Positions 1 to 27,217 are shown, counted from the stretch's first letter. The stretch is 64,000 nt of DNA from Escherichia coli (GCF_041248615.1 NZ_CP158426.1); one strand, 5' to 3'. Notes: generated by a model from the sequence alone, not told the origin. Translations and numbers: made by a program.

Positions 1-2638
1 TTCCGCATTGCGTAGTAATGTCAGTATGCTCGGCAAAGTGCTGGGAGAAACCATCAAGGATGCGTTGGGAGAACACATTCTTGAACGCGTAGAAACTATC
101 CGTAAGTTGTCCAAATCTTCACGCGCTGGCAATGATGCTAACCGCCAGGAGTTGCTCACCACCTTACAAAATTTGTCGAACGACGAGCTGCTGCCCGTTG
201 CGCGTGCGTTTAGTCAGTTTCTGAACCTGGCCAACACCGCCGAGCAATACCACAGCATTTCGCCGAAAGGCGAAGCTGCCAGCAACCCGGAAGTGATCGC
301 CCGCACCCTGCGCAAACTGAAAAACCAGCCGGAACTGAGCGAAGACACCATCAAAAAAGCAGTGGAATCGCTGTCGCTGGAACTGGTCCTCACGGCTCAC
401 CCAACCGAAATTACCCGTCGTACACTGATCCACAAAATGGTGGAAGTGAACGCCTGTTTAAAACAGCTCGATAACAAAGATATCGCTGACTACGAACACA
501 ACCAGCTGATGCGCCGCCTGCGCCAGTTGATCGCCCAGTCATGGCATACCGATGAAATCCGTAAGCTGCGTCCAAGCCCGGTAGATGAAGCCAAATGGGG
601 CTTTGCCGTAGTAGAAAACAGCCTGTGGCAAGGCGTACCGAATTACCTGCGCGAACTGAACGAACAACTGGAAGAGAACCTCGGCTACAAACTGCCCGTC
701 GAATTTGTTCCGGTGCGTTTTACCTCGTGGATGGGCGGTGACCGCGACGGCAACCCGAACGTCACTGCCGATATCACCCGCCACGTCCTGCTGCTCAGTC
801 GCTGGAAAGCCACCGATCTGTTCCTGAAAGATATTCAGGTGCTGGTTTCTGAACTGTCGATGGTTGAAGCAACCCCTGAACTGCTGGCGCTGGTCGGCGA
901 AGAAGGTGCCGCAGAGCCGTATCGCTATCTGATGAAAAACCTGCGTTCTCGCCTGATGGCGACACAGGCATGGCTGGAAGCGCGCCTGAAAGGCGAAGAA
1001 CTGCCAAAACCAGAAGGCCTGCTGACACAAAACGAAGAACTGTGGGAACCGCTCTACGCTTGCTACCAGTCCCTTCAGGCATGTGGCATGGGTATTATCG
1101 CCAACGGCGATCTGCTCGACACTCTGCGTCGCGTGAAATGTTTCGGCGTACCGCTGGTGCGCATTGATATCCGCCAGGAGAGCACCCGCCATACCGAAGC
1201 ATTGGGCGAGCTGACCCGCTATCTCGGCATCGGCGATTATGAAAGCTGGTCAGAGGCCGACAAACAGGCATTCCTGATCCGCGAACTGAACTCCAAACGT
1301 CCGCTTCTGCCGCGCAACTGGCAACCAAGCGCCGAAACGCGCGAAGTGCTCGATACCTGCCAGGTGATTGCCGAAGCACCGCAAGGCTCCATTGCCGCCT
1401 ACGTGATCTCGATGGCGAAAACGCCGTCCGACGTGCTGGCTGTCCACCTGCTGCTGAAAGAAGCGGGTATCGGCTTTGCGATGCCGGTTGCTCCGCTGTT
1501 TGAAACTCTCGATGACCTGAACAACGCCAACGATGTCATGACTCAGCTACTGAATATCGACTGGTATCGCGGCCTGATTCAGGGCAAACAGATGGTGATG
1601 ATTGGCTATTCCGACTCAGCAAAAGATGCGGGCGTGATGGCGGCTTCCTGGGCGCAATATCAGGCACAGGATGCATTAATCAAAACCTGCGAAAAAGCGG
1701 GTATTGAACTGACTCTGTTCCACGGTCGCGGCGGTTCCATTGGTCGCGGCGGCGCACCTGCTCATGCGGCGCTGCTGTCACAACCGCCAGGAAGCCTGAA
1801 AGGCGGCCTGCGCGTGACTGAACAGGGCGAGATGATCCGCTTTAAATATGGTCTGCCAGAAATCACCGTCAGCAGCCTGTCGCTGTACACCGGGGCGATT
1901 CTGGAAGCCAACCTGCTGCCACCACCTGAGCCGAAAGAGAGCTGGCGTCGCATTATGGATGAACTGTCAGTCATCTCCTGCGATCTCTACCGTGGCTACG
2001 TACGTGAAAACAAAGATTTTGTGCCTTACTTCCGCTCCGCTACGCCGGAACAGGAACTGGGCAAACTGCCGTTGGGTTCACGTCCGGCGAAACGTCGCCC
2101 GACTGGCGGCGTCGAGTCGCTGCGCGCCATTCCGTGGATCTTCGCCTGGACGCAAAACCGCCTGATGCTCCCCGCCTGGCTGGGTGCAGGTACGGCGCTG
2201 CAAAAAGTGGTCGAAGATGGCAAACAGAGCGAGCTGGAGGCTATGTGCCGCGATTGGCCATTCTTCTCGACGCGTCTCGGCATGCTGGAGATGGTCTTCG
2301 CCAAAGCAGACCTGTGGCTGGCGGAATACTATGACCAACGTCTGGTAGACAAAGCACTGTGGCCGTTAGGTAAAGAGTTACGCAATCTGCAAGAAGAAGA
2401 CATCAAAGTGGTGCTGGCGATTGCCAACGATTCCCATCTGATGGCCGATCTGCCGTGGATTGCAGAGTCTATTCAGCTACGGAATATTTACACCGACCCG
2501 CTGAACGTATTGCAGGCCGAGTTGCTGCACCGCTCCCGCCAGGCAGAAAAAGAAGGCCATGAGCCGGATCCTCGCGTCGAGCAGGCGTTAATGGTCACTA
2601 TTGCCGGGATTGCGGCAGGTATGCGTAATACCGGCTAA
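1..2638 (+). CDS. ppc: Phosphoenolpyruvate carboxylase, 5'-truncated at window edge (about 5 codons missing)
   Basis: ORF 8..2638 continues in frame back to base 2; translation matches Ppc along its length, including [30 protein letters not shown] and the C-terminal MRNTG. The TTG at 8 is internal, not the true start. Confidence 0.97.
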
Positions 2639-2652
2639 TCTTCCTCTCCTGC

Positions 2653-2685
2653 AAACCCTCGTGCTTTTGCGCGAGGGTTTTCTGA
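2653..2685 (+). terminator. Rho-independent terminator downstream of ppc
   Basis: GC-rich inverted repeat aaaccctcgtgc/gcgcgagggttt followed by a T-run. Confidence 0.6.
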
Positions 2686-2820
2686 AATACTTCTGTTCTA
2701 ACACCCTCGTTTTCAATATATTTCTGTCTGCATTTTATTCAAATTCTGGATATCCCTTCAGATATCCTTAAGGAATTGTCGTTACATTCGGCGATATTTT
2801 TTTCAAGACAGGTTCTTACT

Positions 2821-4554
2821 ATGCATTCCACAGAAGTCCAGGCTAAACCCCTTTTTAGCTGGAAAGCCCTGGGTTGGGCACTGCTCTACTTTTGGTTTTT
2901 CTCTACTCTGCTACAGGCCATTATTTACATCAGTGGTTATAGTGGCACTAACGGCATTCGCGACTCGCTGTTATTCAGTTCGCTGTGGTTGATCCCGGTA
3001 TTCCTCTTTCCGAAGCGGATCAAAATTATTGCCGCAGTGATCGGCGTGGTGCTATGGGCGGCCTCTCTGGCGGCGCTGTGCTACTACGTCATCTACGGTC
3101 AGGAGTTCTCGCAGAGCGTTCTGTTTGTGATGTTTGAAACCAACACCAACGAAGCCAGCGAGTATTTAAGCCAGTATTTCAGCCTGAAAATTGTGCTTAT
3201 CGCGCTGGCCTATACGGCAGTGGCAGTTCTGCTGTGGACACGCCTGCGCCCGGTCTATATTCCAAAGCCGTGGCGTTATGTTGTCTCTTTTGCCCTACTT
3301 TATGGCTTGATTCTGCATCCGATCGCCATGAATACGTTTATCAAAAACAAGCCGTTTGAGAAAACGTTGGATAACCTGGCATCGCGTATGGAGCCTGCCG
3401 CACCGTGGCAATTCCTGACCGGCTATTATCAGTATCGTCAGCAACTAAACTCGCTAACAAAGCTACTGAATGAAAATAATGCCTTGCCGCCGCTGGCGAA
3501 TTTCAAAGATGAATCGGGTAACGAACCGCGCACTTTAGTGCTGGTGATTGGCGAGTCGACCCAGCGTGGCCGCATGAGTCTGTACGGTTATCCGCGTGAA
3601 ACCACGCCGGAGCTGGATGCGCTGCATAAAACCGATCCGAATCTGACCGTGTTTAATAACGTGGTGACGTCTCGTCCTTACACCATTGAAATACTGCAAC
3701 AGGCGCTGACCTTTGCCAATGAAAAGAACCCGGACCTGTACCTGACACAGCCGTCGCTGATGAACATGATGAAACAGGCGGGTTATAAAACCTTCTGGAT
3801 CACCAACCAGCAGACGATGACCGCCCGCAATACCATGCTGACGGTATTTTCGCGCCAGACCGACAAGCAGTACTACATGAACCAGCAACGTACGCAGAGT
3901 GCGCGTGAATACGACACCAACGTGCTGAAGCCGTTCCAGGAAGTGCTGAAGGACCCTGCGCCGAAGAAACTGATCATCGTTCATCTGCTGGGTACGCATA
4001 TCAAGTACAAGTACCGTTATCCGGAAGATCAGGGCAAATTTGACGGTAATACAGAGCATGTTCCACCGGGATTAAACGCAGAAGAGCTGGAGTCATATAA
4101 TGATTATGACAATGCTAACCTGTACAACGATCACGTGGTTGCCAGCCTGATTAAAGACTTTAAAGCAGCAGACCCGAACGGTTTCCTGGTTTATTTCTCT
4201 GACCACGGTGAAGAGGTTTACGACACGCCGCCGCACAAAACTCAGGGGCGTAATGAAGACAACCCGACGCGTCATATGTACACCATTCCGTTCCTGCTGT
4301 GGACGTCAGAAAAATGGCAAGCGACTCATCCGCGTGATTTCTCACAGGATGTTGATCGTAAATACAGCCTGGCGGAACTGATCCACACCTGGTCAGATTT
4401 GGCGGGCTTATCTTACGACGGTTACGATCCAACCCGTTCAGTGGTGAATCCGCAGTTCAAAGAAACTACCCGCTGGATTGGTAACCCGTACAAGAAAAAC
4501 GCGCTGATCGATTACGACACGCTGCCATATGGCGACCAGGTAGGTAATCAGTAA
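2821..4554 (+). CDS. eptC: Phosphoethanolamine transferase EptC (YijP), 577 aa
   Basis: ORF 2776..4554; N-terminal multi-pass hydrophobic region followed by a sulfatase-like periplasmic domain. Start placed at MHSTEVQAKP, the recognised EptC N-terminus. Confidence 0.9.
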   Translation: MHSTEVQAKPLFSWKALGWALLYFWFFSTLLQAIIYISGYSGTNGIRDSLLFSSLWLIPVFLFPKRIKIIAAVIGVVLWAASLAALCYYVIYGQEFSQSVLFVMFETNTNEASEYLSQYFSLKIVLIALAYTAVAVLLWTRLRPVYIPKPWRYVVSFALLYGLILHPIAMNTFIKNKPFEKTLDNLASRMEPAAPWQFLTGYYQYRQQLNSLTKLLNENNALPPLANFKDESGNEPRTLVLVIGESTQRGRMSLYGYPRETTPELDALHKTDPNLTVFNNVVTSRPYTIEILQQALTFANEKNPDLYLTQPSLMNMMKQAGYKTFWITNQQTMTARNTMLTVFSRQTDKQYYMNQQRTQSAREYDTNVLKPFQEVLKDPAPKKLIIVHLLGTHIKYKYRYPEDQGKFDGNTEHVPPGLNAEELESYNDYDNANLYNDHVVASLIKDFKAADPNGFLVYFSDHGEEVYDTPPHKTQGRNEDNPTRHMYTIPFLLWTSEKWQATHPRDFSQDVDRKYSLAELIHTWSDLAGLSYDGYDPTRSVVNPQFKETTRWIGNPYKKNALIDYDTLPYGDQVGNQ

Positions 4555-9410: not shown

Positions 9411-10490
9411 TTAATTAATTTCAAAATCCAAATCCAGGTCGTCTTCTTTTTCATCAGTCGAAGACCCATTATTACGCGCCAGACTTTTCAGCACGTTCAC
9501 GCAGACTGCCGTCACAACCGCCCCGACAGCCACTGCTGCGATATAACCCAGCTTGCCTTCAACCACCGGCAGCACAATCAGACCGCCCCAGCCTGCATAG
9601 CACTGCGCACCGACCAGCGCCGCAGTTACTGCACCACAAACTGAACCGACCATGATGGAAGGAATAACACGCAGCGGATCGGCAGCGGCGAAAGGAATCG
9701 CCCCTTCAGTAACCCCAACGCACCCCATCACCAACGCCGCCTTGCCGGTTTCGCGCTCTTCTGCGGAGAAATTTTTACGACCAATCAGCGTCGCCAGCCC
9801 CATCCCCAGCGGCGGGATACAAATACCCACGGCAGCAATGGCCACCACGGTATATACACCCTGAGCAACGCAAATCAGCATGAAGGCATAGGCCACTTTG
9901 TTAACCGGACCGCCCATATCGAACGCCAGCATCAGACCCATGATCACCGCCAGCATAACAATGCTGCCCTGCTGCATCCCCTGAAGCCACTGAGTCAGGC
10001 TGTTGGTCAATGCCCCCACAGGCTCGCCCAGCCCCCACATCATGATGCCTGCGGTAATCAGTGTGCCGACGATCGGAATGATGAAGATTGGCATCACCGA
10101 GCGCAGAACTTTATGCACCGGAATTTTCTTCAGGTAATGCACCACGATGCCGCCAATAATCCCGGCGATCAGCGCACCAAAGAAGCCCGCACCAAAGCTG
10201 TTGCCGACCCAGGCACCGATAGCGCACGGGGCCAGCGCAGAGCGTTCTGCAATGGAATAACCAATGTAAGCAGCGAGGAAAGGCACCATCAGCGTCAAAC
10301 CTGCAACGCCGATATCAAACAGTTTTTTCAGATTCGGATCGGCTACGGCATCCGGCACTGCGCCTTTGCCATACAACATGACGGAAACCGCCAGCAAAAT
10401 ACCGCCCGATACCACGAAGGGAATCATGTGTGAAACGCCCGTCATTAAGTGCTGACGGGTATTTTTCAGGATCTGCACCAACTCATTCAT
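9411..10490 (-). CDS. frwC: PTS fructose-like IIC permease FrwC, 359 aa
   Basis: ORF 9411..10511 trimmed to MNELVQILKNT; polytopic membrane protein. Confidence 0.88.
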   Translation of the reverse strand: MNELVQILKNTRQHLMTGVSHMIPFVVSGGILLAVSVMLYGKGAVPDAVADPNLKKLFDIGVAGLTLMVPFLAAYIGYSIAERSALAPCAIGAWVGNSFGAGFFGALIAGIIGGIVVHYLKKIPVHKVLRSVMPIFIIPIVGTLITAGIMMWGLGEPVGALTNSLTQWLQGMQQGSIVMLAVIMGLMLAFDMGGPVNKVAYAFMLICVAQGVYTVVAIAAVGICIPPLGMGLATLIGRKNFSAEERETGKAALVMGCVGVTEGAIPFAAADPLRVIPSIMVGSVCGAVTAALVGAQCYAGWGGLIVLPVVEGKLGYIAAVAVGAVVTAVCVNVLKSLARNNGSSTDEKEDDLDLDFEIN

Positions 10491-10798
10491 AAGCTGCTCC
10501 CGGGCTTGCAAAAGCCCATGTCCATATTTTTGATGGAGGAAACAATAGGCAATCGCAGGCGGAGCAAACAGTGGATAAAAAGGCCATTTACTGGACTTTT
10601 GTAATATCAGTACAAAAATGCGATCCGCCTCATAACTTGCGGCAACCCGGAAGCATGCCGCAAAACGGCGTCTTGTGAGACGCGTCGCAAATTGACGGTT
10701 ACATTACATTTGTCCAGCTTTTGGCAGATTTGTCACATGGCAGGCCGTTGCCGTGCGCTCTTATCCTGTAAACAGAAAACCGTACCGGGAGAGAGGCA

Positions 10799-17060: not shown

Positions 17061-19295
<2,235 letters not shown>

Positions 19296-19569
19296 TTATA
19301 ATTGAATTAATCCACGGATGCGATAGTTGAGATCTTACATATTGTTGGTTAAAGAGATGTAGATCAAATTGATCGTAATTAAGCTTTTTTGATTATGTCC
19401 GAATTCGGACAAATGCTTTATAAAAAAGGGTTTTAGCTTTATATCCTTCAAGTAATGAGGGAGAAAACAAGGCTGACACCCTTATTTTCCCGCCCTCATT
19501 TCGAGGCAGCATTTTGTGCTCTGTTTAAAATTTGTGATCACTGTGTGATTTTCACAAAAGCCACACTAT

Positions 19570-20463
<894 letters not shown>

Positions 20464-20502
20464 TTACCTCATCAATCGCTTGTAGTTATATGTTGTGTTG
20501 TG

Positions 20503-20534
20503 AACATCTATCCATTTAGACGTCCAGATGTAAA
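20503..20534 (-). promoter_or_regulatory. MetJ operator (tandem met boxes) upstream of metF
   Basis: Tandem 8-bp units related to AGACGTCT (acatctggacgtctaaatggatagatgt on the metF strand), 40-75 bp upstream of the metF start. Confidence 0.6.
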
Positions 20535-20841
20535 GATGAAGGAAAAGCCGAGGGGCGTCAACCGAAAAATGACCAATGATGGTGAGGAAAAATCAGGGAA
20601 GTTGAAAAAAACTCATCTTAATTAGAGGCGATAAAAGATTTCTCTATAGCGCAATCCACCTCGCACGTTTTGACTGATATTCTGACAACACAGCGACACC
20701 TGGGCTTATTCGAAAAACAACGTCCTGCCACCGGATGGTGATGCTAAGGCATCTGATTCGGCCTGCGCCCTCGCGTAGGCCGAATACTGGATCTGCAAAA
20801 TCAACTGGTAACAAACAGATGAATCAACTCAATACGTACTT

Positions 20842-22395
20842 TTACTTGATATCTTTCACGCGCATACCGTTGATCTGTTCATCCGTGATGGTGTTACCCG
20901 CTTTGAAGTAATCAACCACGGCGTGATAAACGTAATAACCGCCCGTTGTGTTACGCGCTTTCCCTTCGGTAAAGGCGGTAAAACCATCTCCACCATCAGC
21001 AAGGAAACTCTGAGTAGCAATGTGGTAAATCGTCGCATCTTCAATGGGTTTGCCATTCAGAGTCAGCGTGATTACCCGCTGACCAACCGGCTTACTGCTG
21101 TCGTACTTCATTTCCAGGCCTTTCGATACCTGTAAAACGCCATTACTTAAACTTGCGCCGTGTTCCATCAAACTGCGTAATTGTTTACCCGTGAGATCCA
21201 TCGTCACCAGTTCGTTGGGAAACGGGAAGGTACTGATGACGCCGCCCATCGTAATCGCCCCTGCGGGGATCTCATTGCGAATGCCGCCAGAGTTGGTTAA
21301 CGCCAATTGGGTGTTTTTACCCGCCGCTACCAGTAAAGCATCAGCCGCCAGGTTCCCGAGGGAAGCCGATTCACCATAGGCACGTTTTAATTCAACCGGC
21401 GATTTCGCGACCGTTTGTTGCACCACTTCATCAAGCTTTTTATTCCAGCCGTCGATCACCTGTTTTGTTTGCGGATCGGGCTTCCACTCGTCGGCGTAAA
21501 TGGTTTTAAGCTCGAAGTTTTTCACCGTAAAATCATGCGGCTTCTCTTTGTAGTCGAGAACCAGTTTGCCCACATCAATCCCGCCGCTGTCAGTGGAGAG
21601 GATGAGCGTATTGCCGACTTTAATCGGTTCCGGCGTACCCACATGCGCATGTCCGGTGATCAAAATATCCAGCCCTTTCACCTGACTTGCCGTCTGAATA
21701 TCTTTATCCAGCGCGCGACGCACATCTGTGCCTCCCATACTGGACTGGCGGGCCGGAACACCTTCATGGATCAGGGCGACGGTCAAATCAACCTTGCCTT
21801 TAAGTTCATCGATATAACGTTGTAGCCATTTAATTTCATCACGCGCTTCAATCCCCACTCGCGTTGCCGCAGATACCGTGTCATTAAAGGCAAATACACC
21901 GTGCAAACCTATAACGCCTATTTTCACTCCGTCTTTTTCGATGATGGTATATGGCTTATCCCAGAATGATTTACTGCTGTTCTGATAAAAAACATTGCCC
22001 TGCACAATAGGGAATTTTGCCTGACTCAACTGTAATAATGTGTTGTCCCAGCCGTGGTCAAATTCATGGTTGCCTATCGTGACGGCATCAAACGGCATAG
22101 TATTCATAATATCGATAATAGCCTTACCTTTGGTCAGGCTGCTGATATATGGCCCGGTAAAATAATCACCCGCATCAAAAAACCATGTCGCTTTATTTTT
22201 TGCTTTTTCTTGCTTAACCAGCGTAGTGATATTTGCCCAGCCGCCAATATCCCGTTTACCATCAGCGATCCACGGCACTTTATAAGGCTCGACATGCGCA
22301 TGGAGGTCGTTGGTATAAATGATGGTGACATCTTTGGCGCAAGCCCAAAACGGCAGTGTTAATGCGATACCCGCAGCAAGTATTTTAATTTTCAT
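20842..22395 (-). CDS. Secreted bifunctional metallophosphoesterase/5'-nucleotidase family protein (UshA/CpdB-like), 517 aa
   Basis: ORF 20842..22395; N-terminal signal peptide [20 protein letters not shown]; calcineurin-like motifs NDLHAH, GDYFTG, GNHEFD, GHAH; C-terminal 5'-nucleotidase-type substrate domain. No equivalent gene between metF and metL in K-12 as I recall. Confidence 0.75.
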
Positions 22396-22527
22396 AAACA
22401 GTCCCTTTCAGTGAGATAAAGGATTGCTACATTACGTTCTGAAAGAGTTATTTATGTGAGAGTAATCACATCCACAGGGGAGCGTTGCCGGACAAAATCA
22501 ACGACCATGTGAAATCGTTGGTGATAT

Positions 22528-23658
22528 ATGTCGACTCTGTTTACGATTAATGCCTGCAAGTCGTTTGGTTGCCGTAATTTAGGGCAGCCAACATCTAAAG
22601 ATTATAGCTGGCCCGACTATCGGCTGGGTTATCCGGCATTGCACTGTCGGGCATGTGGCAGTTACCCGCCGTTGTTTGACGAGCAACAATTTCGTGACTG
22701 GTTGTCAGTTCACTTATCTACTTTTGCAACAGAGAAAGGCCATTTTTGCCCGGTATGTTATGGCACAAAGACGATTTGTTATGGCCACAATCCACAGGGG
22801 TCGCAACGCATTCAATGTCGTAACTGCAAAAAAGTCTGGACACCTAAACAATATCAGAAAGAAATAACGCCTCCTGAAATAATCGAAACGGTTGCTCTTC
22901 TGGTGCCATTTCAGGGAGCCAGCAATGGGCAGAAACTGTATGTTTTAATCAGTTTTGATGCTCTTCGCGGTAATATTCTTCATCTTTCTACTAATTACAC
23001 GCAGCATCAGGCTGGAGAAAGTCTGCATTATCGATACAGAGGGAATGCAGAACCAGAGTTACACGAGAGTAATATTGTACAACGCGTTGATATGCGCGAA
23101 GCACAATTTCTACGCCGCAGTCAGTTTGATGAAATTCAGTATGGCAGCGCAGCGCTCAAACGCAATGCTAAAGGTGTTATTCTGCGTCCGGTTATCACTG
23201 CACACGGGCATTTCAGAGTACTGAATATTTTATTCCCTACAGTAAAAACACATGTAATTTCACACGAGTGTTTTTTAAGAGGTGCGATTATTACGGCCTG
23301 GGCAGAACTGTTTCGCCAACAGCAAGGTGAGATTTGGTTTATTGAAGAGGAAATAGCTGACTATACCGATAATACGCCCTGGCGTTTTCAGGGAAAAACT
23401 TATCACGGCTGGTGGAAAAATCAGTGGCAACTCTGGGTTCAGGGCAAAAATCGTAAAATGGTATGTGCATTAACGGGCGGAAATATCAGCAAAGCTGAAA
23501 TGCTCTCTTTAGCAACCAGCAGACATTTTATCGACTGGCTACATAAACAAGCAGTATTTACTCACAGCGCCCCGCTTTCCGCAGGGCGCGTTACGCAAAT
23601 ACTGCTTTCTCTGGCTCAGGATTACAACAACTGCGCCAGGCGGTTAATATCCGACTGA
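22528..23658 (+). CDS. Uncharacterised 376-aa protein with N-terminal Cys-rich zinc-ribbon region (transposase InsA/IS1595-type)
   Basis: ORF 22528..23658; motifs C-x4-C, C-x2-C and CPVC-x17-QRIQCRNCKKVW resembling IS1 InsA and IS1595 zinc ribbons; no obvious DDE triad; 3' end overlaps the convergent metL stop by about 37 bp. Confidence 0.55.
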   Translation: MSTLFTINACKSFGCRNLGQPTSKDYSWPDYRLGYPALHCRACGSYPPLFDEQQFRDWLSVHLSTFATEKGHFCPVCYGTKTICYGHNPQGSQRIQCRNCKKVWTPKQYQKEITPPEIIETVALLVPFQGASNGQKLYVLISFDALRGNILHLSTNYTQHQAGESLHYRYRGNAEPELHESNIVQRVDMREAQFLRRSQFDEIQYGSAALKRNAKGVILRPVITAHGHFRVLNILFPTVKTHVISHECFLRGAIITAWAELFRQQQGEIWFIEEEIADYTDNTPWRFQGKTYHGWWKNQWQLWVQGKNRKMVCALTGGNISKAEMLSLATSRHFIDWLHKQAVFTHSAPLSAGRVTQILLSLAQDYNNCARRLISD

Positions 23659-26054
23659 ATCGCCCCTGCGGTGACGTCGCGCCCCGCGCCAGGCCCACGG
23701 ATCACCAGAGGGTTATCGCGATACCAGCGGCTTTCGATGGCAAAGACGTTATCGCACGGCAGCAGTGATGCCAGCGGATGGTCTTCACGCACCGCTTCCA
23801 CGCCCACACGCGCTTTGCCATTGGCATCGAAACGCGCCACGTAGCGCAGCACCAGCCCCATTTCGCGGGCCGCTTCCAGCCGTTGCACCATCTGCTCGTT
23901 AAGTTCATCGCCGTTTTCAAAGAAATGGTCGATGCTACCACCTTCGCAATGGGCAGGCACCAGCGATTCCACGCGCACCTGATCTGGTTCGATGTCGTAA
24001 CCCGCTTCACGCGCCAGAATCACCAGCTTGCGCATCACGTCTTTGCCGGAAAGGTCATCACGCGGATCAGGCTCGGTTAAGCCCTGCTGCCACGCCTGAT
24101 CCACCAGCTCGGTAAACGGCACGCTACCGTCGAATTGCAGGAACAGCCAGGAGAGCGTGCCGGAGAAGATCCCACTGATCGACAAAATAGTATCGCCGCT
24201 GTCGATCAGATCGCGCACGGTATGGTTGATCGGCAAGCCCGCACCGACGGTGGCGTTGTACAGCCAGTGACGCCCGGTTTTTTCGAAGGCGTCGTGGATC
24301 TGGCGATATTTATTGCTGTCGCTGGCTCCCGCCAGTTTGTTGGCGCTGATGACGTGGAAACCGTGGCTGGCAAAATCGAGATACTGATCAGCAAGCTGCT
24401 GGCTGGCGGTAACGTCCAACACCACTAAATCATCATACGGATGGGCGCGCATCCACAGGAACAGCGACTCTTCATCCTGCTCGACCGCTTCATCGTTGAA
24501 GAAGGCTAACGCGCGGCTGGCGTCCAGCCCGTCATAACTCAACAGGCTACGGCGGCTGTCCACCACGCCTGCCAGCACAAATTCAAAGCCGGTACGCGCC
24601 GAGAGCGTGCTCTGCTCACGGGCGAACAGTTCCAGCCAGCGGGAACCGATATTGCCCTTGCCGAACAATACCAGGCCGATGCGTTTTTCTGCGCGGAAGA
24701 CGGACTGATGCAGCCCCTGAATCAGGCTTTCGGTCGGTCCGGTGCGCAGTACTGCCACCAGGCTGATGCCGTCATCCGACTGCCAGGTAAATTCGACCGG
24801 CTGGCCTTTCAGTTGCTGCCAGAAGCGGTGGCAATGCAGCGGGTTACGGGTTACGCCCGCCCCAACCATCGCCACCAGCGCCAGCCCCTGACGCAGGCGC
24901 AGTTCGCCAGGTAATCCCGCTTCGTCGAGGATTTTCAGCGCACTGTCGGCCACTTCTGAGGTGTAGCAAAATTGCAGCAACTGGCGATCGTTATGTACGC
25001 CAACCGCCAGTGGGCGCACCTGAGCACGTTTCAGGATCTGGTCGATCTCTTTATGCGCCAGTTTGAAATCCTGGCTGGTGGGCACCTGAAACTCAATCAA
25101 GCAGACATCATCGTGGCTGGTGACAATACGCGCACCAGTACCGGAGGCCAGCACGCGTTCAATGCGCGTGGAACCTTGATCCGGCGTGTAGCTACAGCGC
25201 AGCTGCAGGTCAATTTCGCTGCCAGAAACCGGCTGTAAAGTACGGGCGTGAAGAACGGGAGCCGCCAGACGCGCCAGTTCGCTGGCCTCATCCAGACGCA
25301 GCAACGGCAGCAGGCAGGCATCTTTCACTTTACGCGGGTCGGCACTGTATACCCCGGCGACGTCGCTCCAGATGGTGACGCGAGAAACACCCGCCAGCGC
25401 ACCGATTTGTGTCGCGGAATAGTCGGAACCGTTACGCCCCAGCAGCACCGTTTCACCGGCGTTGTTACGGCTGATAAACCCGGTCACCACCAGACGTTTG
25501 CCCGGATGTTGCACCAGTAGCTGTTGCAGCAACGGGTAAGAAAGCCCTTCATCAACCTGCGGTTGCGCAGCGCGTTCAGCGCGTAAAAACTCGCGGGCAT
25601 CAAGCCAGGCCGCTGGCAGCCCTTGTTGATTAAGCACCGCAGACATCAGGCGCGCCGACCACACTTCACCGTGACCCACCACTTCCGCATACACCGCATC
25701 GTTAATACCGCTGTCGAGCAGCGCCGCCAGGCGCTCAAGATCGCTGACAAAAGCGCTAATGAGGCTATCGGCTTCTTCGGCGGGTAGCAGGCCGCTAATC
25801 AGATCGCACTGATAGCGACGCAGCGTTTGTTGAACCTGATGCGCAGAGAGACGATCGGTCTGACTTAGTTTCAACCAGTTAATCAACTGGTTAGTGGTGC
25901 TACCGGCGGCGGAAACCACCATCATATCGTCAGGCTGAGAGTACTCCGCCATAATGCCCGCGACACGCAAATAACACTTCACATCAGCCAGACTACTGCC
26001 ACCAAATTTATGCAGTTGACGACCTTTCGCCCCTGCCTGCGCAATCACACTCAT
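23622..26054 (-). CDS. metL: Bifunctional aspartokinase II / homoserine dehydrogenase II, 810 aa
   Basis: ORF 23622..26054 (MSVIAQAGAKGRQLHKFGGSSLADVKCY...). Confidence 0.95.
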   Translation of the reverse strand: MSVIAQAGAKGRQLHKFGGSSLADVKCYLRVAGIMAEYSQPDDMMVVSAAGSTTNQLINWLKLSQTDRLSAHQVQQTLRRYQCDLISGLLPAEEADSLISAFVSDLERLAALLDSGINDAVYAEVVGHGEVWSARLMSAVLNQQGLPAAWLDAREFLRAERAAQPQVDEGLSYPLLQQLLVQHPGKRLVVTGFISRNNAGETVLLGRNGSDYSATQIGALAGVSRVTIWSDVAGVYSADPRKVKDACLLPLLRLDEASELARLAAPVLHARTLQPVSGSEIDLQLRCSYTPDQGSTRIERVLASGTGARIVTSHDDVCLIEFQVPTSQDFKLAHKEIDQILKRAQVRPLAVGVHNDRQLLQFCYTSEVADSALKILDEAGLPGELRLRQGLALVAMVGAGVTRNPLHCHRFWQQLKGQPVEFTWQSDDGISLVAVLRTGPTESLIQGLHQSVFRAEKRIGLVLFGKGNIGSRWLELFAREQSTLSARTGFEFVLAGVVDSRRSLLSYDGLDASRALAFFNDEAVEQDEESLFLWMRAHPYDDLVVLDVTASQQLADQYLDFASHGFHVISANKLAGASDSNKYRQIHDAFEKTGRHWLYNATVGAGLPINHTVRDLIDSGDTILSISGIFSGTLSWLFLQFDGSVPFTELVDQAWQQGLTEPDPRDDLSGKDVMRKLVILAREAGYDIEPDQVRVESLVPAHCEGGSIDHFFENGDELNEQMVQRLEAAREMGLVLRYVARFDANGKARVGVEAVREDHPLASLLPCDNVFAIESRWYRDNPLVIRGPGAGRDVTAGAIQSDINRLAQLL

Positions 26055-26056
26055 TT

Positions 26057-27217
26057 TTACCCCTTGTTTGCAGCCCGGAAGCCATTTTCCAGGTCGGCAA
26101 TTAAATCTTCGCCATCTTCAATACCGGTGGAGATACGCAGCAGCGTCTCGGAGATCCCGGCGGCAGCACGCGCTTCTGGTGCCATGCCTGCATGTGTCAT
26201 GGTTGCGGCGTGAGAGATTAAACTTTCCACTCCCCCTAATGATTCCGCCAGCGTAAACAACGACAGCCCGCCCAGGAAACGACGCAGCGTCTGCTCATCG
26301 CCATCCAGTTCAAAACTCAACATTGCGCCAAAGCCTTTTTGCTGGCGCGCGGCAATTTCATGCCCCTGATTTTCCGGCAGCGACGGGTGATACAGTTTTT
26401 TCACCAACGGCTGGGTTTGCAGATATTTCACAATCGCCTGCGCGTTGCGCTGGGCCAGCTCCATACGCGGCACCAGCGTTCGCAAACCACGTAGCAGCAG
26501 ATAGCTGTCAAACGCGCCGCCCGTCACGCCAATATTATTTGCCCACCAGGCCAGTTCGGTGACAACGTCCGGATCTTTAGCAATCACCACGCCGGCCACC
26601 ACGTCTGAGTGACCGTTCAGATATTTCGTGCATGAATGCAACACCAGATCGGCACCTAATGCCAGCGGATTTTGTAATGCCGGGCTTAAGAAGGTGTTAT
26701 CCACCACGCTCACCGCCCCGACTTCCCTTGCCAGATGGCAGATTTTCGCAATATCCACGACGCGTAACAATGGATTACTTGGGCTTTCTACCAGTACCAG
26801 TTTGGGGTTTTCTGCCAGCGCTGCCCGTAATGCCTGTTCATCGCCTTGATCAACAAACAACACGCGATAGCAACCGCGTTTCGCCAGGCTGTCGAACAGG
26901 CGATAGCTGCCTCCGTAGCAGTCGTGCGGCGCAACCAGCAGATCGCCAGGTTTCAAAAAGACGGTCGTTACCAGGTGAATCGCGGACATGCCGGTATTAG
27001 TAAGTACTGCACCAGCACCGCCTTCCAGTTCTGCCAGCGCACGCTGAACCACATCGCGCGTTGGGTTGCCGCGCCGCGAGTAATCATGCGCGCGCGGTTC
27101 ATTAAATCCGGTAAAGTTATAGGTGCTGGAAAGATGGATGGGAGGGACAACGCAACCATACTGTTCGTCGTCATTTAACCCGCTACGCACTGCGATGGTG
27201 GCCTGTTTACGCGTCAT
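26057..27217 (-). CDS. metB: Cystathionine gamma-synthase, 386 aa
   Basis: ORF 26057..27394 trimmed to MTRKQATIAVRSGLNDDEQYG; PLP-dependent Cys/Met-metabolism fold; 2 bp from metL. Confidence 0.93.
   Translation of the reverse strand: MTRKQATIAVRSGLNDDEQYGCVVPPIHLSSTYNFTGFNEPRAHDYSRRGNPTRDVVQRALAELEGGAGAVLTNTGMSAIHLVTTVFLKPGDLLVAPHDCYGGSYRLFDSLAKRGCYRVLFVDQGDEQALRAALAENPKLVLVESPSNPLLRVVDIAKICHLAREVGAVSVVDNTFLSPALQNPLALGADLVLHSCTKYLNGHSDVVAGVVIAKDPDVVTELAWWANNIGVTGGAFDSYLLLRGLRTLVPRMELAQRNAQAIVKYLQTQPLVKKLYHPSLPENQGHEIAARQQKGFGAMLSFELDGDEQTLRRFLGGLSLFTLAESLGGVESLISHAATMTHAGMAPEARAAAGISETLLRISTGIEDGEDLIADLENGFRAANKG

Follow-up and report, generated by a model that had tools for sequence, protein, structure and literature searches.

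A possible CRP-controlled nucleotide-scavenging module with a transposase-derived candidate regulator between metF and metL of Escherichia coli

What do two divergent genes that some Escherichia coli strains carry between metF and metL do, and does anything beyond position hold them together? The question arises from a 64,000-nucleotide stretch of E. coli DNA (GCF_041248615.1 NZ_CP158426.1; the window, whose numbering is used throughout), in which the gene order across the locus is yijF, yijE, katG, metF, a 517-amino-acid open reading frame (ORF) that we call NT1, a 376-amino-acid ORF that we call hyp, metL, metB, and metJ. Comparison with K-12/DH1 by blastn and alignment revealed that homology ends at position 20610 and restarts at 23621, a single base short of the metL stop codon. 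At this place the window holds 3,010 bp and K-12 holds 197 unrelated bases; thus, the net extra DNA is 2.8 kb, the size given in a first-pass annotation of the locus. We refer to this extra DNA as the island. Our reading, in which we have about even confidence, is that it encodes a module for nucleotide scavenging under CRP control, whose local regulator descends from a transposase.

NT1 is an ordinary member of a known enzyme class. As the first-pass annotation had recognized, it is a calcineurin-like phosphoesterase/5′-nucleotidase on the minus strand, with matches to Pfam Metallophos (PF00149; E 4e-12, residues 24-252) and 5_nucleotid_C (PF02872; E 1.1e-38, residues 335-477). The metal-binding motifs DLHAH, GDYF, GNHEFD, IHEG, and GHAHV are intact in the translation. 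Since scores against the NCBIfam UshA model (NF007109; 152 bits, cut-off 600) and the CpdB, NadN, and SoxB models were all far below the cut-offs, NT1 is a UshA-like paralogue and not a UshA orthologue. Its N terminus, read by eye and not with a predictor, is signal-peptide-like, with two lysines, a hydrophobic core, and A-C-A before the predicted cut, followed by KD. NT1 is probably exported to the periplasm, and its substrates are probably nucleotides. The protein is 87-99% identical across genera, with a ratio of nonsynonymous to synonymous divergence (dN/dS) of 0.02-0.06, and matches one family of unknown function in PHROGs.

The hyp protein consists of a zinc ribbon (residues ~8-45), a helix (52-70), a second zinc ribbon of the InsA type (~72-105), an RNase-H-like domain of the DDE transposase/integrase type (~118-263), and a C-terminal part made of a β-sheet and helices. 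Its eight cysteines form two four-cysteine ribbons, C10/C15/C40/C43 and C74/C77/C97/C100 (CxxC-type), and none of the eight varies among the aligned enterobacterial sequences. In a family alignment of 63 members that includes homologues of 20-30% identity, and on which our structural model and family profile are based, six of these positions are kept in 59-63 members, C74 in 51, and C77 in 55. The label "zinc-ribbon protein" in the first-pass annotation was therefore correct about the ribbons but too narrow, as there is an RNase-H-like domain too. Source annotations call hyp a "cytoplasmic protein," and some homologues are entered as "IS1 family transposase" or "transposase-like protein." When 1.84 billion representative proteins were searched with a profile, only 137 relatives were recovered, many of them 400-600 amino acids long and 20-30% identical.

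An AlphaFold2 model of hyp made with the 63-member alignment had a pLDDT of 94.6 and a pTM of 0.93, while a shallow 17-sequence alignment gave a pLDDT of 41; the 20-30%-identical homologues were needed for a confident model. The core of the model is β-β-β-α-β-α-β-α, which is RNase-H-like, and comparison with the PDB using Foldseek gave weak, generic RNase-H-like matches. Against Pfam, the window protein had no domain above threshold; a single-sequence search of the PDB gave nothing useful, and in PHROGs the only match was to a zinc ribbon. Eukaryotic C2H2 fingers recovered in a profile search of the PDB were judged to be compositional matches to cysteine and histidine. The acidic residues D144, D201, and E247 do not vary in Enterobacteriaceae. 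Across the family these positions are acidic in 48, 54, and 62 of the 63 members, respectively, and several of the apparent exceptions look like one-residue shifts.

Profile comparisons place the origin of this protein. When the family profile was aligned with K-12 InsA using hhalign, the match had a probability of 97.3% (E 2.7e-11) and covered the InsA zinc ribbon and helix-turn-helix (HTH). Pfam Zn_ribbon_InsA (PF03811) was matched by 10 of the 63 members at E<=1e-3, and for longer family members there is also a match to the NCBIfam IS1 transposase model, over positions 1-85, which comprise its zinc finger and HTH. The window protein itself matches InsA-type models weakly (NF050000; 21 bits, cut-off 28) and has a gap where the hhalign alignment covers the HTH, a segment that longer homologues keep. 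No family member matched the domain of IS1 InsB (DDE_Tnp_IS1) in Pfam or NCBIfam, and hhalign of the family against InsB and an IS1 alignment gave probabilities of at most 0.4%, with nothing beyond the InsA part; since the search for InsB homologues returned only close IS1 variants, the IS1 profile is shallow and distant homology is possible. We conclude that hyp is descended from an IS1-like transposase, with an InsA-type zinc ribbon joined to an RNase-H-like domain. It is domesticated and no longer mobile: it is single-copy at a syntenic site, an inverted-repeat search of the window found no terminal inverted repeats bracketing hyp or the island, and its dN/dS is 0.09-0.16, between genera too, with reading frames intact over saturated synonymous divergence.

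If hyp is no longer a transposase, the genes beside its relatives may indicate what it does. In all nine informative neighborhoods of 20-30%-identical homologues, nucleoside or nucleotide genes are directly adjacent; two further homologues lie on very short contigs, and one contig has only unannotated flanking fragments. Five homologues are divergent from their neighbors, the usual layout for a local regulator: P0137, from nupC and a nucleoside phosphorylase gene; P0140, from deoB and genes for a phosphorylase and a NupG-like symporter; P0143 of Salmonella, from genes for a porin, an AphA-like acid phosphatase, and a class II phosphodiesterase; P0150 of Agarivorans, from nupC-deoC-deoA-deoB, with its other flank occupied by TatD and a Bmp-type ABC system; and the Motilimonas homologue (L040), from deoD-tal-deoB-nupC, with add 1.1 kb downstream. 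The remaining homologues lie directly downstream of a 5′-nucleotidase gene (Vibrio and Photobacterium members), directly downstream of a DeoD-like phosphorylase gene (P0207), or as the last gene of an operon with tsx and genes for a sulfatase/phosphodiesterase and a radical-SAM maturase (P0155). As the neighboring genes vary yet share one physiological theme, they point to a functional link and not to transposon cargo. The function of the pair, unknown in the first-pass annotation, is thereby narrowed to nucleoside/nucleotide scavenging.

Two of these contexts have further features. The P0143-type locus (L046-L048, Salmonella enterica, e.g., serovar Give) encodes a 462-amino-acid hyp homologue and a class II cyclic-nucleotide phosphodiesterase within a small region flanked by IS3-family transposase genes. 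In the tsx-led operon, the radical-SAM maturase-like gene (L055 3847-4989) lies between the sulfatase/phosphodiesterase gene and the hyp homologue, and a gene resembling a radical-SAM/SPASM "anaerobic sulfatase maturase" directly follows NT3, a paralogue of NT1 described below, in Enterobacter asburiae (L013 2955-4043). The two maturase-like genes hint that some enzymes of the module need post-translational maturation.

We determined how often the two genes occur together. Both genes (scored as at least 80% of the island-specific 2.95 kb) are present in 1,840 of 5,426 complete E. coli genomes; 5 have a fragment only, and ~3,580 have neither. Thus, NT1 and hyp have been gained and lost together in E. 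coli. Island copies occur at a median of one place per genome and a maximum of two; of 1,846 E. coli matches to island-specific DNA, 2 are plasmid-borne. A scan of one genome per bacterial species recovered 37 loci, and in 33 of them an NT1 orthologue and the hyp homologue are arranged head-to-head across a gap of ~80-145 bp. The other four comprise one locus with a paralogous nucleotidase, one cut by a contig end, and the two distant Motilimonas homologues. These counts indicate that the genes form a unit, and neither of the conditions that the first-pass annotation named as refuting its proposal of a functional pair holds: they are not core genes in E. coli, and the pair is widespread outside this strain.

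The pair is also old at this site. In 22 loci it lies between metF and metL with hyp abutting metL, and the genera with the pair beside metL are Escherichia, Pseudocitrobacter, Citrobacter, Klebsiella, Kosakonia, Phytobacter, Superficieibacter, Kluyvera, and Salmonella (S. arizonae). A position abutting metL in about ten enterobacterial genera indicates a long-standing resident with allelic exchange, and not the "accessory insertion" suggested by the first-pass annotation. In E. coli, the short two-gene allele found in the window occurs in 1,179 of the 5,426 genomes and a long allele in 659. The long allele, with the order metF, NT1, hyp, NT2, NT3, tsx-like gene, metL, adds two nucleotidase paralogues (NT2 and NT3) and a gene for a Tsx-like channel. 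Between the alleles (window 20842-23658 and L004, E. coli 13P477T, 1478-4288), NT1 is 99% identical in amino acid sequence with a synonymous divergence (dS) of 0.11, while hyp is 78% identical with a dS of 1.24, which indicates a recombination breakpoint in or near the 132-bp intergenic region. Compared with Pseudocitrobacter, the pair is much closer (dS 0.27-0.35) than its flanks (dS 0.76-1.14), which points to horizontal exchange; for Citrobacter, Klebsiella, and Kosakonia, divergence is higher in the pair than in its flanks. In 10 loci the pair is situated elsewhere than at metF-metL, with NT2, the tsx-like gene, and/or NT3 co-directional downstream of NT1 in 6 of these, and the module is at other chromosomal sites in Enterobacter, Pluralibacter, and Silvania.

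The two start codons are separated by a control region with the length and AT-richness ascribed to it in the first-pass annotation, and this region holds several conserved elements (Table 1). The perfect CRP-consensus palindrome is the only perfect match in the 64 kb, where 0.02 would be expected by chance. In 31 of 34 loci its arms are kept while the 6-nt spacer varies freely. CRP probably binds this site, judging from the textbook consensus. Of the 34 loci, 33 have the first 13 nt of the neighboring conserved box (TTACGTTCTGAAA, allowing degeneracy at three positions); in a 26-kb long-allele locus, the exact 14-mer occurs once, at the NT1-hyp region. The inverted repeat next to hyp is possibly an autoregulatory site or a hairpin in the 5′ untranslated region. 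Because a sigma-70 consensus scan of the intergenic region found no credible promoter, promoters were placed by eye: a TAATGT -10-like hexamer on the NT1 side would put the center of the CRP site near -41.5, and the hyp side has a conserved CAAAAT. In the long allele, a near-consensus CRP site with one mismatch precedes the NT2-NT3-tsx genes, upstream of NT2.

Table 1. Features of the metF-metL locus and its surroundings in the window
Feature	Position	Strand	Basis	Remarks
katG	17061-19280	minus		
metF	19570-20460	minus		
Island	20611-23620		blastn and alignment	not in K-12; variable region between metF and metL, in its short two-gene form
Palindrome	20756-20785		inverted-repeat search	13-nt arms, 92% complementary, 4-nt loop; ~57 nt downstream of NT1 stop codon
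NT1	20842-22395	minus		517 amino acids; predicted periplasmic UshA-like metallophosphoesterase/5′-nucleotidase
Divergent control region	22396-22527			132 bp between start codons; 41% GC (window 52%); near-invariant blocks in a 22-locus alignment
CTTTCAG	22405-22411		conserved columns	inverted partner of CTGAAAG at 22439-22445; candidate operator half-site
Conserved box TTACGTTCTGAAAG	22432-22445			23 nt start-to-start from CRP palindrome, a fixed distance
CRP-consensus palindrome TGTGA-N6-TCACA	22455-22470			perfect; between NT1 and hyp
Inverted repeat CAACGA-N10-TCGTTG	22499-22520			immediately upstream of hyp start codon; right arm invariant, left arm varies
hyp	22528-23658	plus		376 amino acids; Cys-rich cytoplasmic protein, transposase-derived
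Coding region of hyp RNase-H-like (DDE transposase/integrase-type) domain	22879-23316	plus		residues ~118-263
Imperfect hairpin	23549-23607		inverted-repeat search	27-nt arms, 78% complementary; in 3′ end of hyp coding region, 15 nt downstream of metL stop codon
hyp/metL convergent overlap	23622-23658			37 bp; last 12 hyp codons are antisense of metL C terminus
metL	23622-26054	minus		

A model that would accommodate these data is that carbon starvation, through cyclic AMP (cAMP)-CRP, switches on a module for scavenging external nucleotides. Nucleotides cannot pass through the inner membrane; NT1 would dephosphorylate them in the periplasm, and the cell would take up the nucleosides so formed. 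In the long allele, the two extra nucleotidase paralogues and the Tsx-like outer-membrane channel would extend the same pathway. The hyp protein would act as a local transcription factor on the conserved boxes next to the CRP site, perhaps also regulating its own gene. We infer this role from sequence: from the DNA-binding ancestry of hyp, its conserved divergent layout, the conserved boxes, and the neighborhoods found across the family. More broadly, and a little short of even confidence, we propose that hyp represents an undescribed family of domesticated IS1-like transposases recruited as a dedicated local regulator, or a metal-dependent effector, of nucleoside/nucleotide scavenging operons (5′-nucleotidases/tsx, deo, nupC/nupG, aphA/cpdP-like). 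Members of this family have two zinc ribbons, in most cases an InsA-type HTH, and an RNase-H-like core, and range over Enterobacterales, Vibrionales, and Alteromonadales.

Several observations weigh against hyp being a regulator of this kind. An HTH segment of ~60 residues, common to InsA and the longer homologues, is missing from the E. coli subfamily, in which only the zinc ribbons would be left to bind DNA. The family-wide conservation of D144, D201, and E247 is unexpected if the RNase-H-like domain is a mere scaffold. No second copy of the conserved box, within 3 mismatches, lies upstream of NT2 in the long allele. In four of the distant loci the hyp homologue is co-directional with the enzyme gene, ending the operon or just following it, which fits a co-expressed partner equally well. 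Finally, Salmonella arizonae keeps NT1 and the CRP site beside a truncated hyp, so NT1 is not strictly dependent on hyp. Some of these points favor the main alternative, that hyp is an active enzyme, either a nuclease or a recombinase, and metal-dependent. Its RNase-H-like domain would have kept an acidic site of the DDE type, and it would take part, together with the scavenging genes, in nucleic-acid or nucleotide turnover. The conserved acidic residues, the four homologues in or just after enzyme operons, and the missing HTH would all fit an enzyme, as would the D-to-D spacing of 57 residues, which equals that of IS1 InsB as read from the alignment. Yet in the canonical strand assignment (β-1 at 118-127 and β-4 at 217-219) there is no conserved acid in β-1 or at 220-222, so the expected first and second catalytic positions are without one and the triad may not sit at the active site. 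The family has no sequence-profile similarity to any DDE family that we could find, and no obvious cytoplasmic substrate would link a nuclease to periplasmic nucleotidases. We regard an enzymatic role as unlikely.

That the two genes are not partners at all, with hyp an insertion sequence (IS) remnant or an active IS1-like transposase that adjoins the nucleotidase by chance or moves NT1 as cargo, seems very improbable. Automatic transposase labels on some homologues suggest it, and so do the different sites of the module in Enterobacter, Pluralibacter, and Silvania, the second copy in some Escherichia and Citrobacter, the signs of horizontal exchange in the Pseudocitrobacter comparison, and the varying cargo of the metF-metL gap, which is a hotspot. 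Against this, E. coli genomes hold so few copies, the pair is syntenic beside metL across so many genera, and terminal inverted repeats are missing around both hyp and the island; moreover, purifying selection is strong and the frames are intact, and a transposase would have no reason to lie beside such varied genes of nucleoside/nucleotide metabolism in distant species. We give even less credence to an anti-phage or stress-defense system, in which, for example, the zinc-ribbon protein would trigger the phosphoesterase to deplete nucleotides. The pairing of a nuclease-like fold with a phosphoesterase in a variable accessory module of two genes could be read in this way, as could the match of NT1 to a PHROG family of unknown function. 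But neither protein matched a PADLOC defense model at E<=0.1; NT1, with its signal-peptide-like N terminus and periplasmic UshA-like class, could not deplete cytoplasmic nucleotides; the neighbors of hyp relatives are catabolic and transport genes (deo, nupC, and tsx) and not defense genes; and the CRP site points to catabolite control.

The remainder of the locus was compared with K-12 and with other strains. E. coli NRZ14408 (NZ_LT599825.1) is 100% identical over window 19400-26200. In K-12/DH1 the metF-metL spacing is 348 bp. The 197-bp segment (L001 1712-1908) overlaps the 3′ end of an annotated 44-amino-acid hypothetical ORF (L001 1637-1771) that begins in the shared flank, and it holds a repetitive extragenic palindromic (REP)-like palindrome, GCCGGAT...ATCCGGCC. 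The segment has no similarity to either island allele, and a search for remnants gave only chance 9-11-mers and no deletion scar. The K-12 state may be a loss of the island; because no island remnant is present in the K-12 segment, the direction, loss or gain, is read from the comparative distribution.

Two inverted repeats lie near the ends of the island. The palindrome downstream of NT1 may be a terminator or an mRNA-stabilizing hairpin. The first-pass annotation placed a REP-like palindrome at about 20750..20790; the palindrome is real, but the REP label is not established, as a search limited to the 64-kb window found no further copy at 0-1 mismatch, and the 4 hits with up to 2 mismatches (1.9 expected) are at chance level. 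At the other end, the imperfect hairpin within hyp could possibly be a metL terminator embedded in the convergent gene. The C-terminal tail that hyp derives from its overlap with metL also occurs in homologues labeled Escherichia sp. E2593 and Pseudocitrobacter cyperus, and a 31-bp overlap of the hyp and metL matches is common to loci L005-L008.

Additional copies and cargo were evident in other strains. A second, diverged copy of the module, with hyp 67-75% identical, lies away from metF-metL in E. coli SCPM-O-B-8794 (L014), Escherichia sp. MOD1-EC7003 (L033), and Citrobacter sp. wls619 (L034). The order of this copy is NT1-NT2-tsx-NT3 in L014 and L034, with two tandem NT2 paralogues in L014, and NT1-tsx-NT3 in L033, which is without NT2. 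Cargo on the metF side of the gap, a hotspot, differs between species and includes a gene for a LysR-family regulator in Citrobacter braakii (L019 6899-7807) and genes for a glucose-type phosphotransferase system IIBC protein and a MalI-like repressor in Escherichia whittamii (L006 5602-8241). In Salmonella enterica subsp. arizonae (L037, ~9900-10729), the match to the truncated hyp is limited to residues 126-368 and other sequence has taken the place of what lies past the CRP site, while NT1 is intact together with the CRP palindrome and conserved box. AFDB also lists many short fragments of hyp from Salmonella, and these observations suggest that the gene has decayed repeatedly there.

The nucleotidase class and the long form of the island are already known. 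In a limited library of literature, we found no description of the transposase ancestry of the hyp family or of its link to nucleosides and nucleotides. The module is present in about a third of complete E. coli genomes, including strains of extraintestinal pathogenic E. coli (ExPEC) and Nissle 1917, and in many Klebsiella, Citrobacter, and Enterobacter. If our reading is correct, hyp would be a bacterial transcription factor of a new type, a clear example of transposase domestication in bacteria, and a counterpart of the transposase-derived transcription factors of eukaryotes. It would also explain how an accessory form of nutrient scavenging is controlled, which is relevant to growth on products of host and microbiota nucleic-acid breakdown, and it would correct a recurrent annotation error, in which these proteins are called "cytoplasmic protein" or mis-annotated as "IS1 family transposase."

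Among known systems, NT1 most resembles the UshA/YfkN-type 5′-nucleotidases, with which it shares a two-domain architecture and all metallophosphoesterase motifs. E. coli UshA is periplasmic. NT1 appears to have a secretion signal, as UshA does, and its presumed role is likewise to free nucleosides and phosphate from external nucleotides; unlike UshA, it belongs to a family of three paralogues that, in the long allele, is accompanied by a Tsx-like channel. An identity of ~27-28% to B. subtilis YfkN has been reported (PMC12928451, PLoS One 2026). The same paper describes GR31, the metL..metF region of B2 ExPEC strains, in which it lists Tsx and three UshA-like ORFs; the system proposed there is one of coordinated nucleoside processing and transport (PMC12928451). 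GR31 lies at the same chromosomal site as the island and is the long allele, with an NT1 orthologue of 99% amino acid identity. The window differs in carrying the short allele, without NT2, NT3, and tsx, and its hyp is only 78% identical though NT1 is nearly identical. The GR31 ORF table and the accompanying text on ORFs 131-431 do not include hyp (PMC12928451).

The proposed control of the island resembles that of other scavenging genes, from which it also differs: no CytR operator was identified at the island, and hyp is unrelated to the LacI-family protein CytR or to DeoR. In E. coli, the nucleoside-scavenging genes tsx, deo, udp, cdd, nupC, and nupG are under CRP/CytR control. The island shares with this regulon its physiological theme, a consensus CRP site in the NT1-hyp promoter region, and, in the long allele, a tsx paralogue.

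For hyp itself, the nearest known system is IS1. InsA is a sequence-specific repressor, and the second zinc ribbon of hyp is homologous to it; longer family members also keep the InsA HTH, and the family has the same domain order as InsAB′, a DNA-binding N terminus followed by an RNase-H-like domain. Differences from IS1 are the extra N-terminal zinc ribbon, the lack of the HTH in the window protein, and a C-terminal domain of ~260 residues compared with ~140 in IS1, without detectable sequence similarity to InsB. Also unlike IS1, hyp is without terminal repeats, single-copy, syntenic, and under purifying selection. Host regulators derived from transposases are known from eukaryotes, where FHY3/FAR1, ZBED, and CENP-B are experimentally supported examples. 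In the limited library that we searched, no bacterial regulator of a metabolic operon with an origin in a DDE transposase was described. Cases from metazoans have been reviewed (PMC10027918). The hyp protein differs from the eukaryotic examples in being bacterial and in having a regulatory role that is a proposal; like them, it retains a DNA-binding module and a core fold in an immobile host gene, with a conserved context and a coherent physiological theme.

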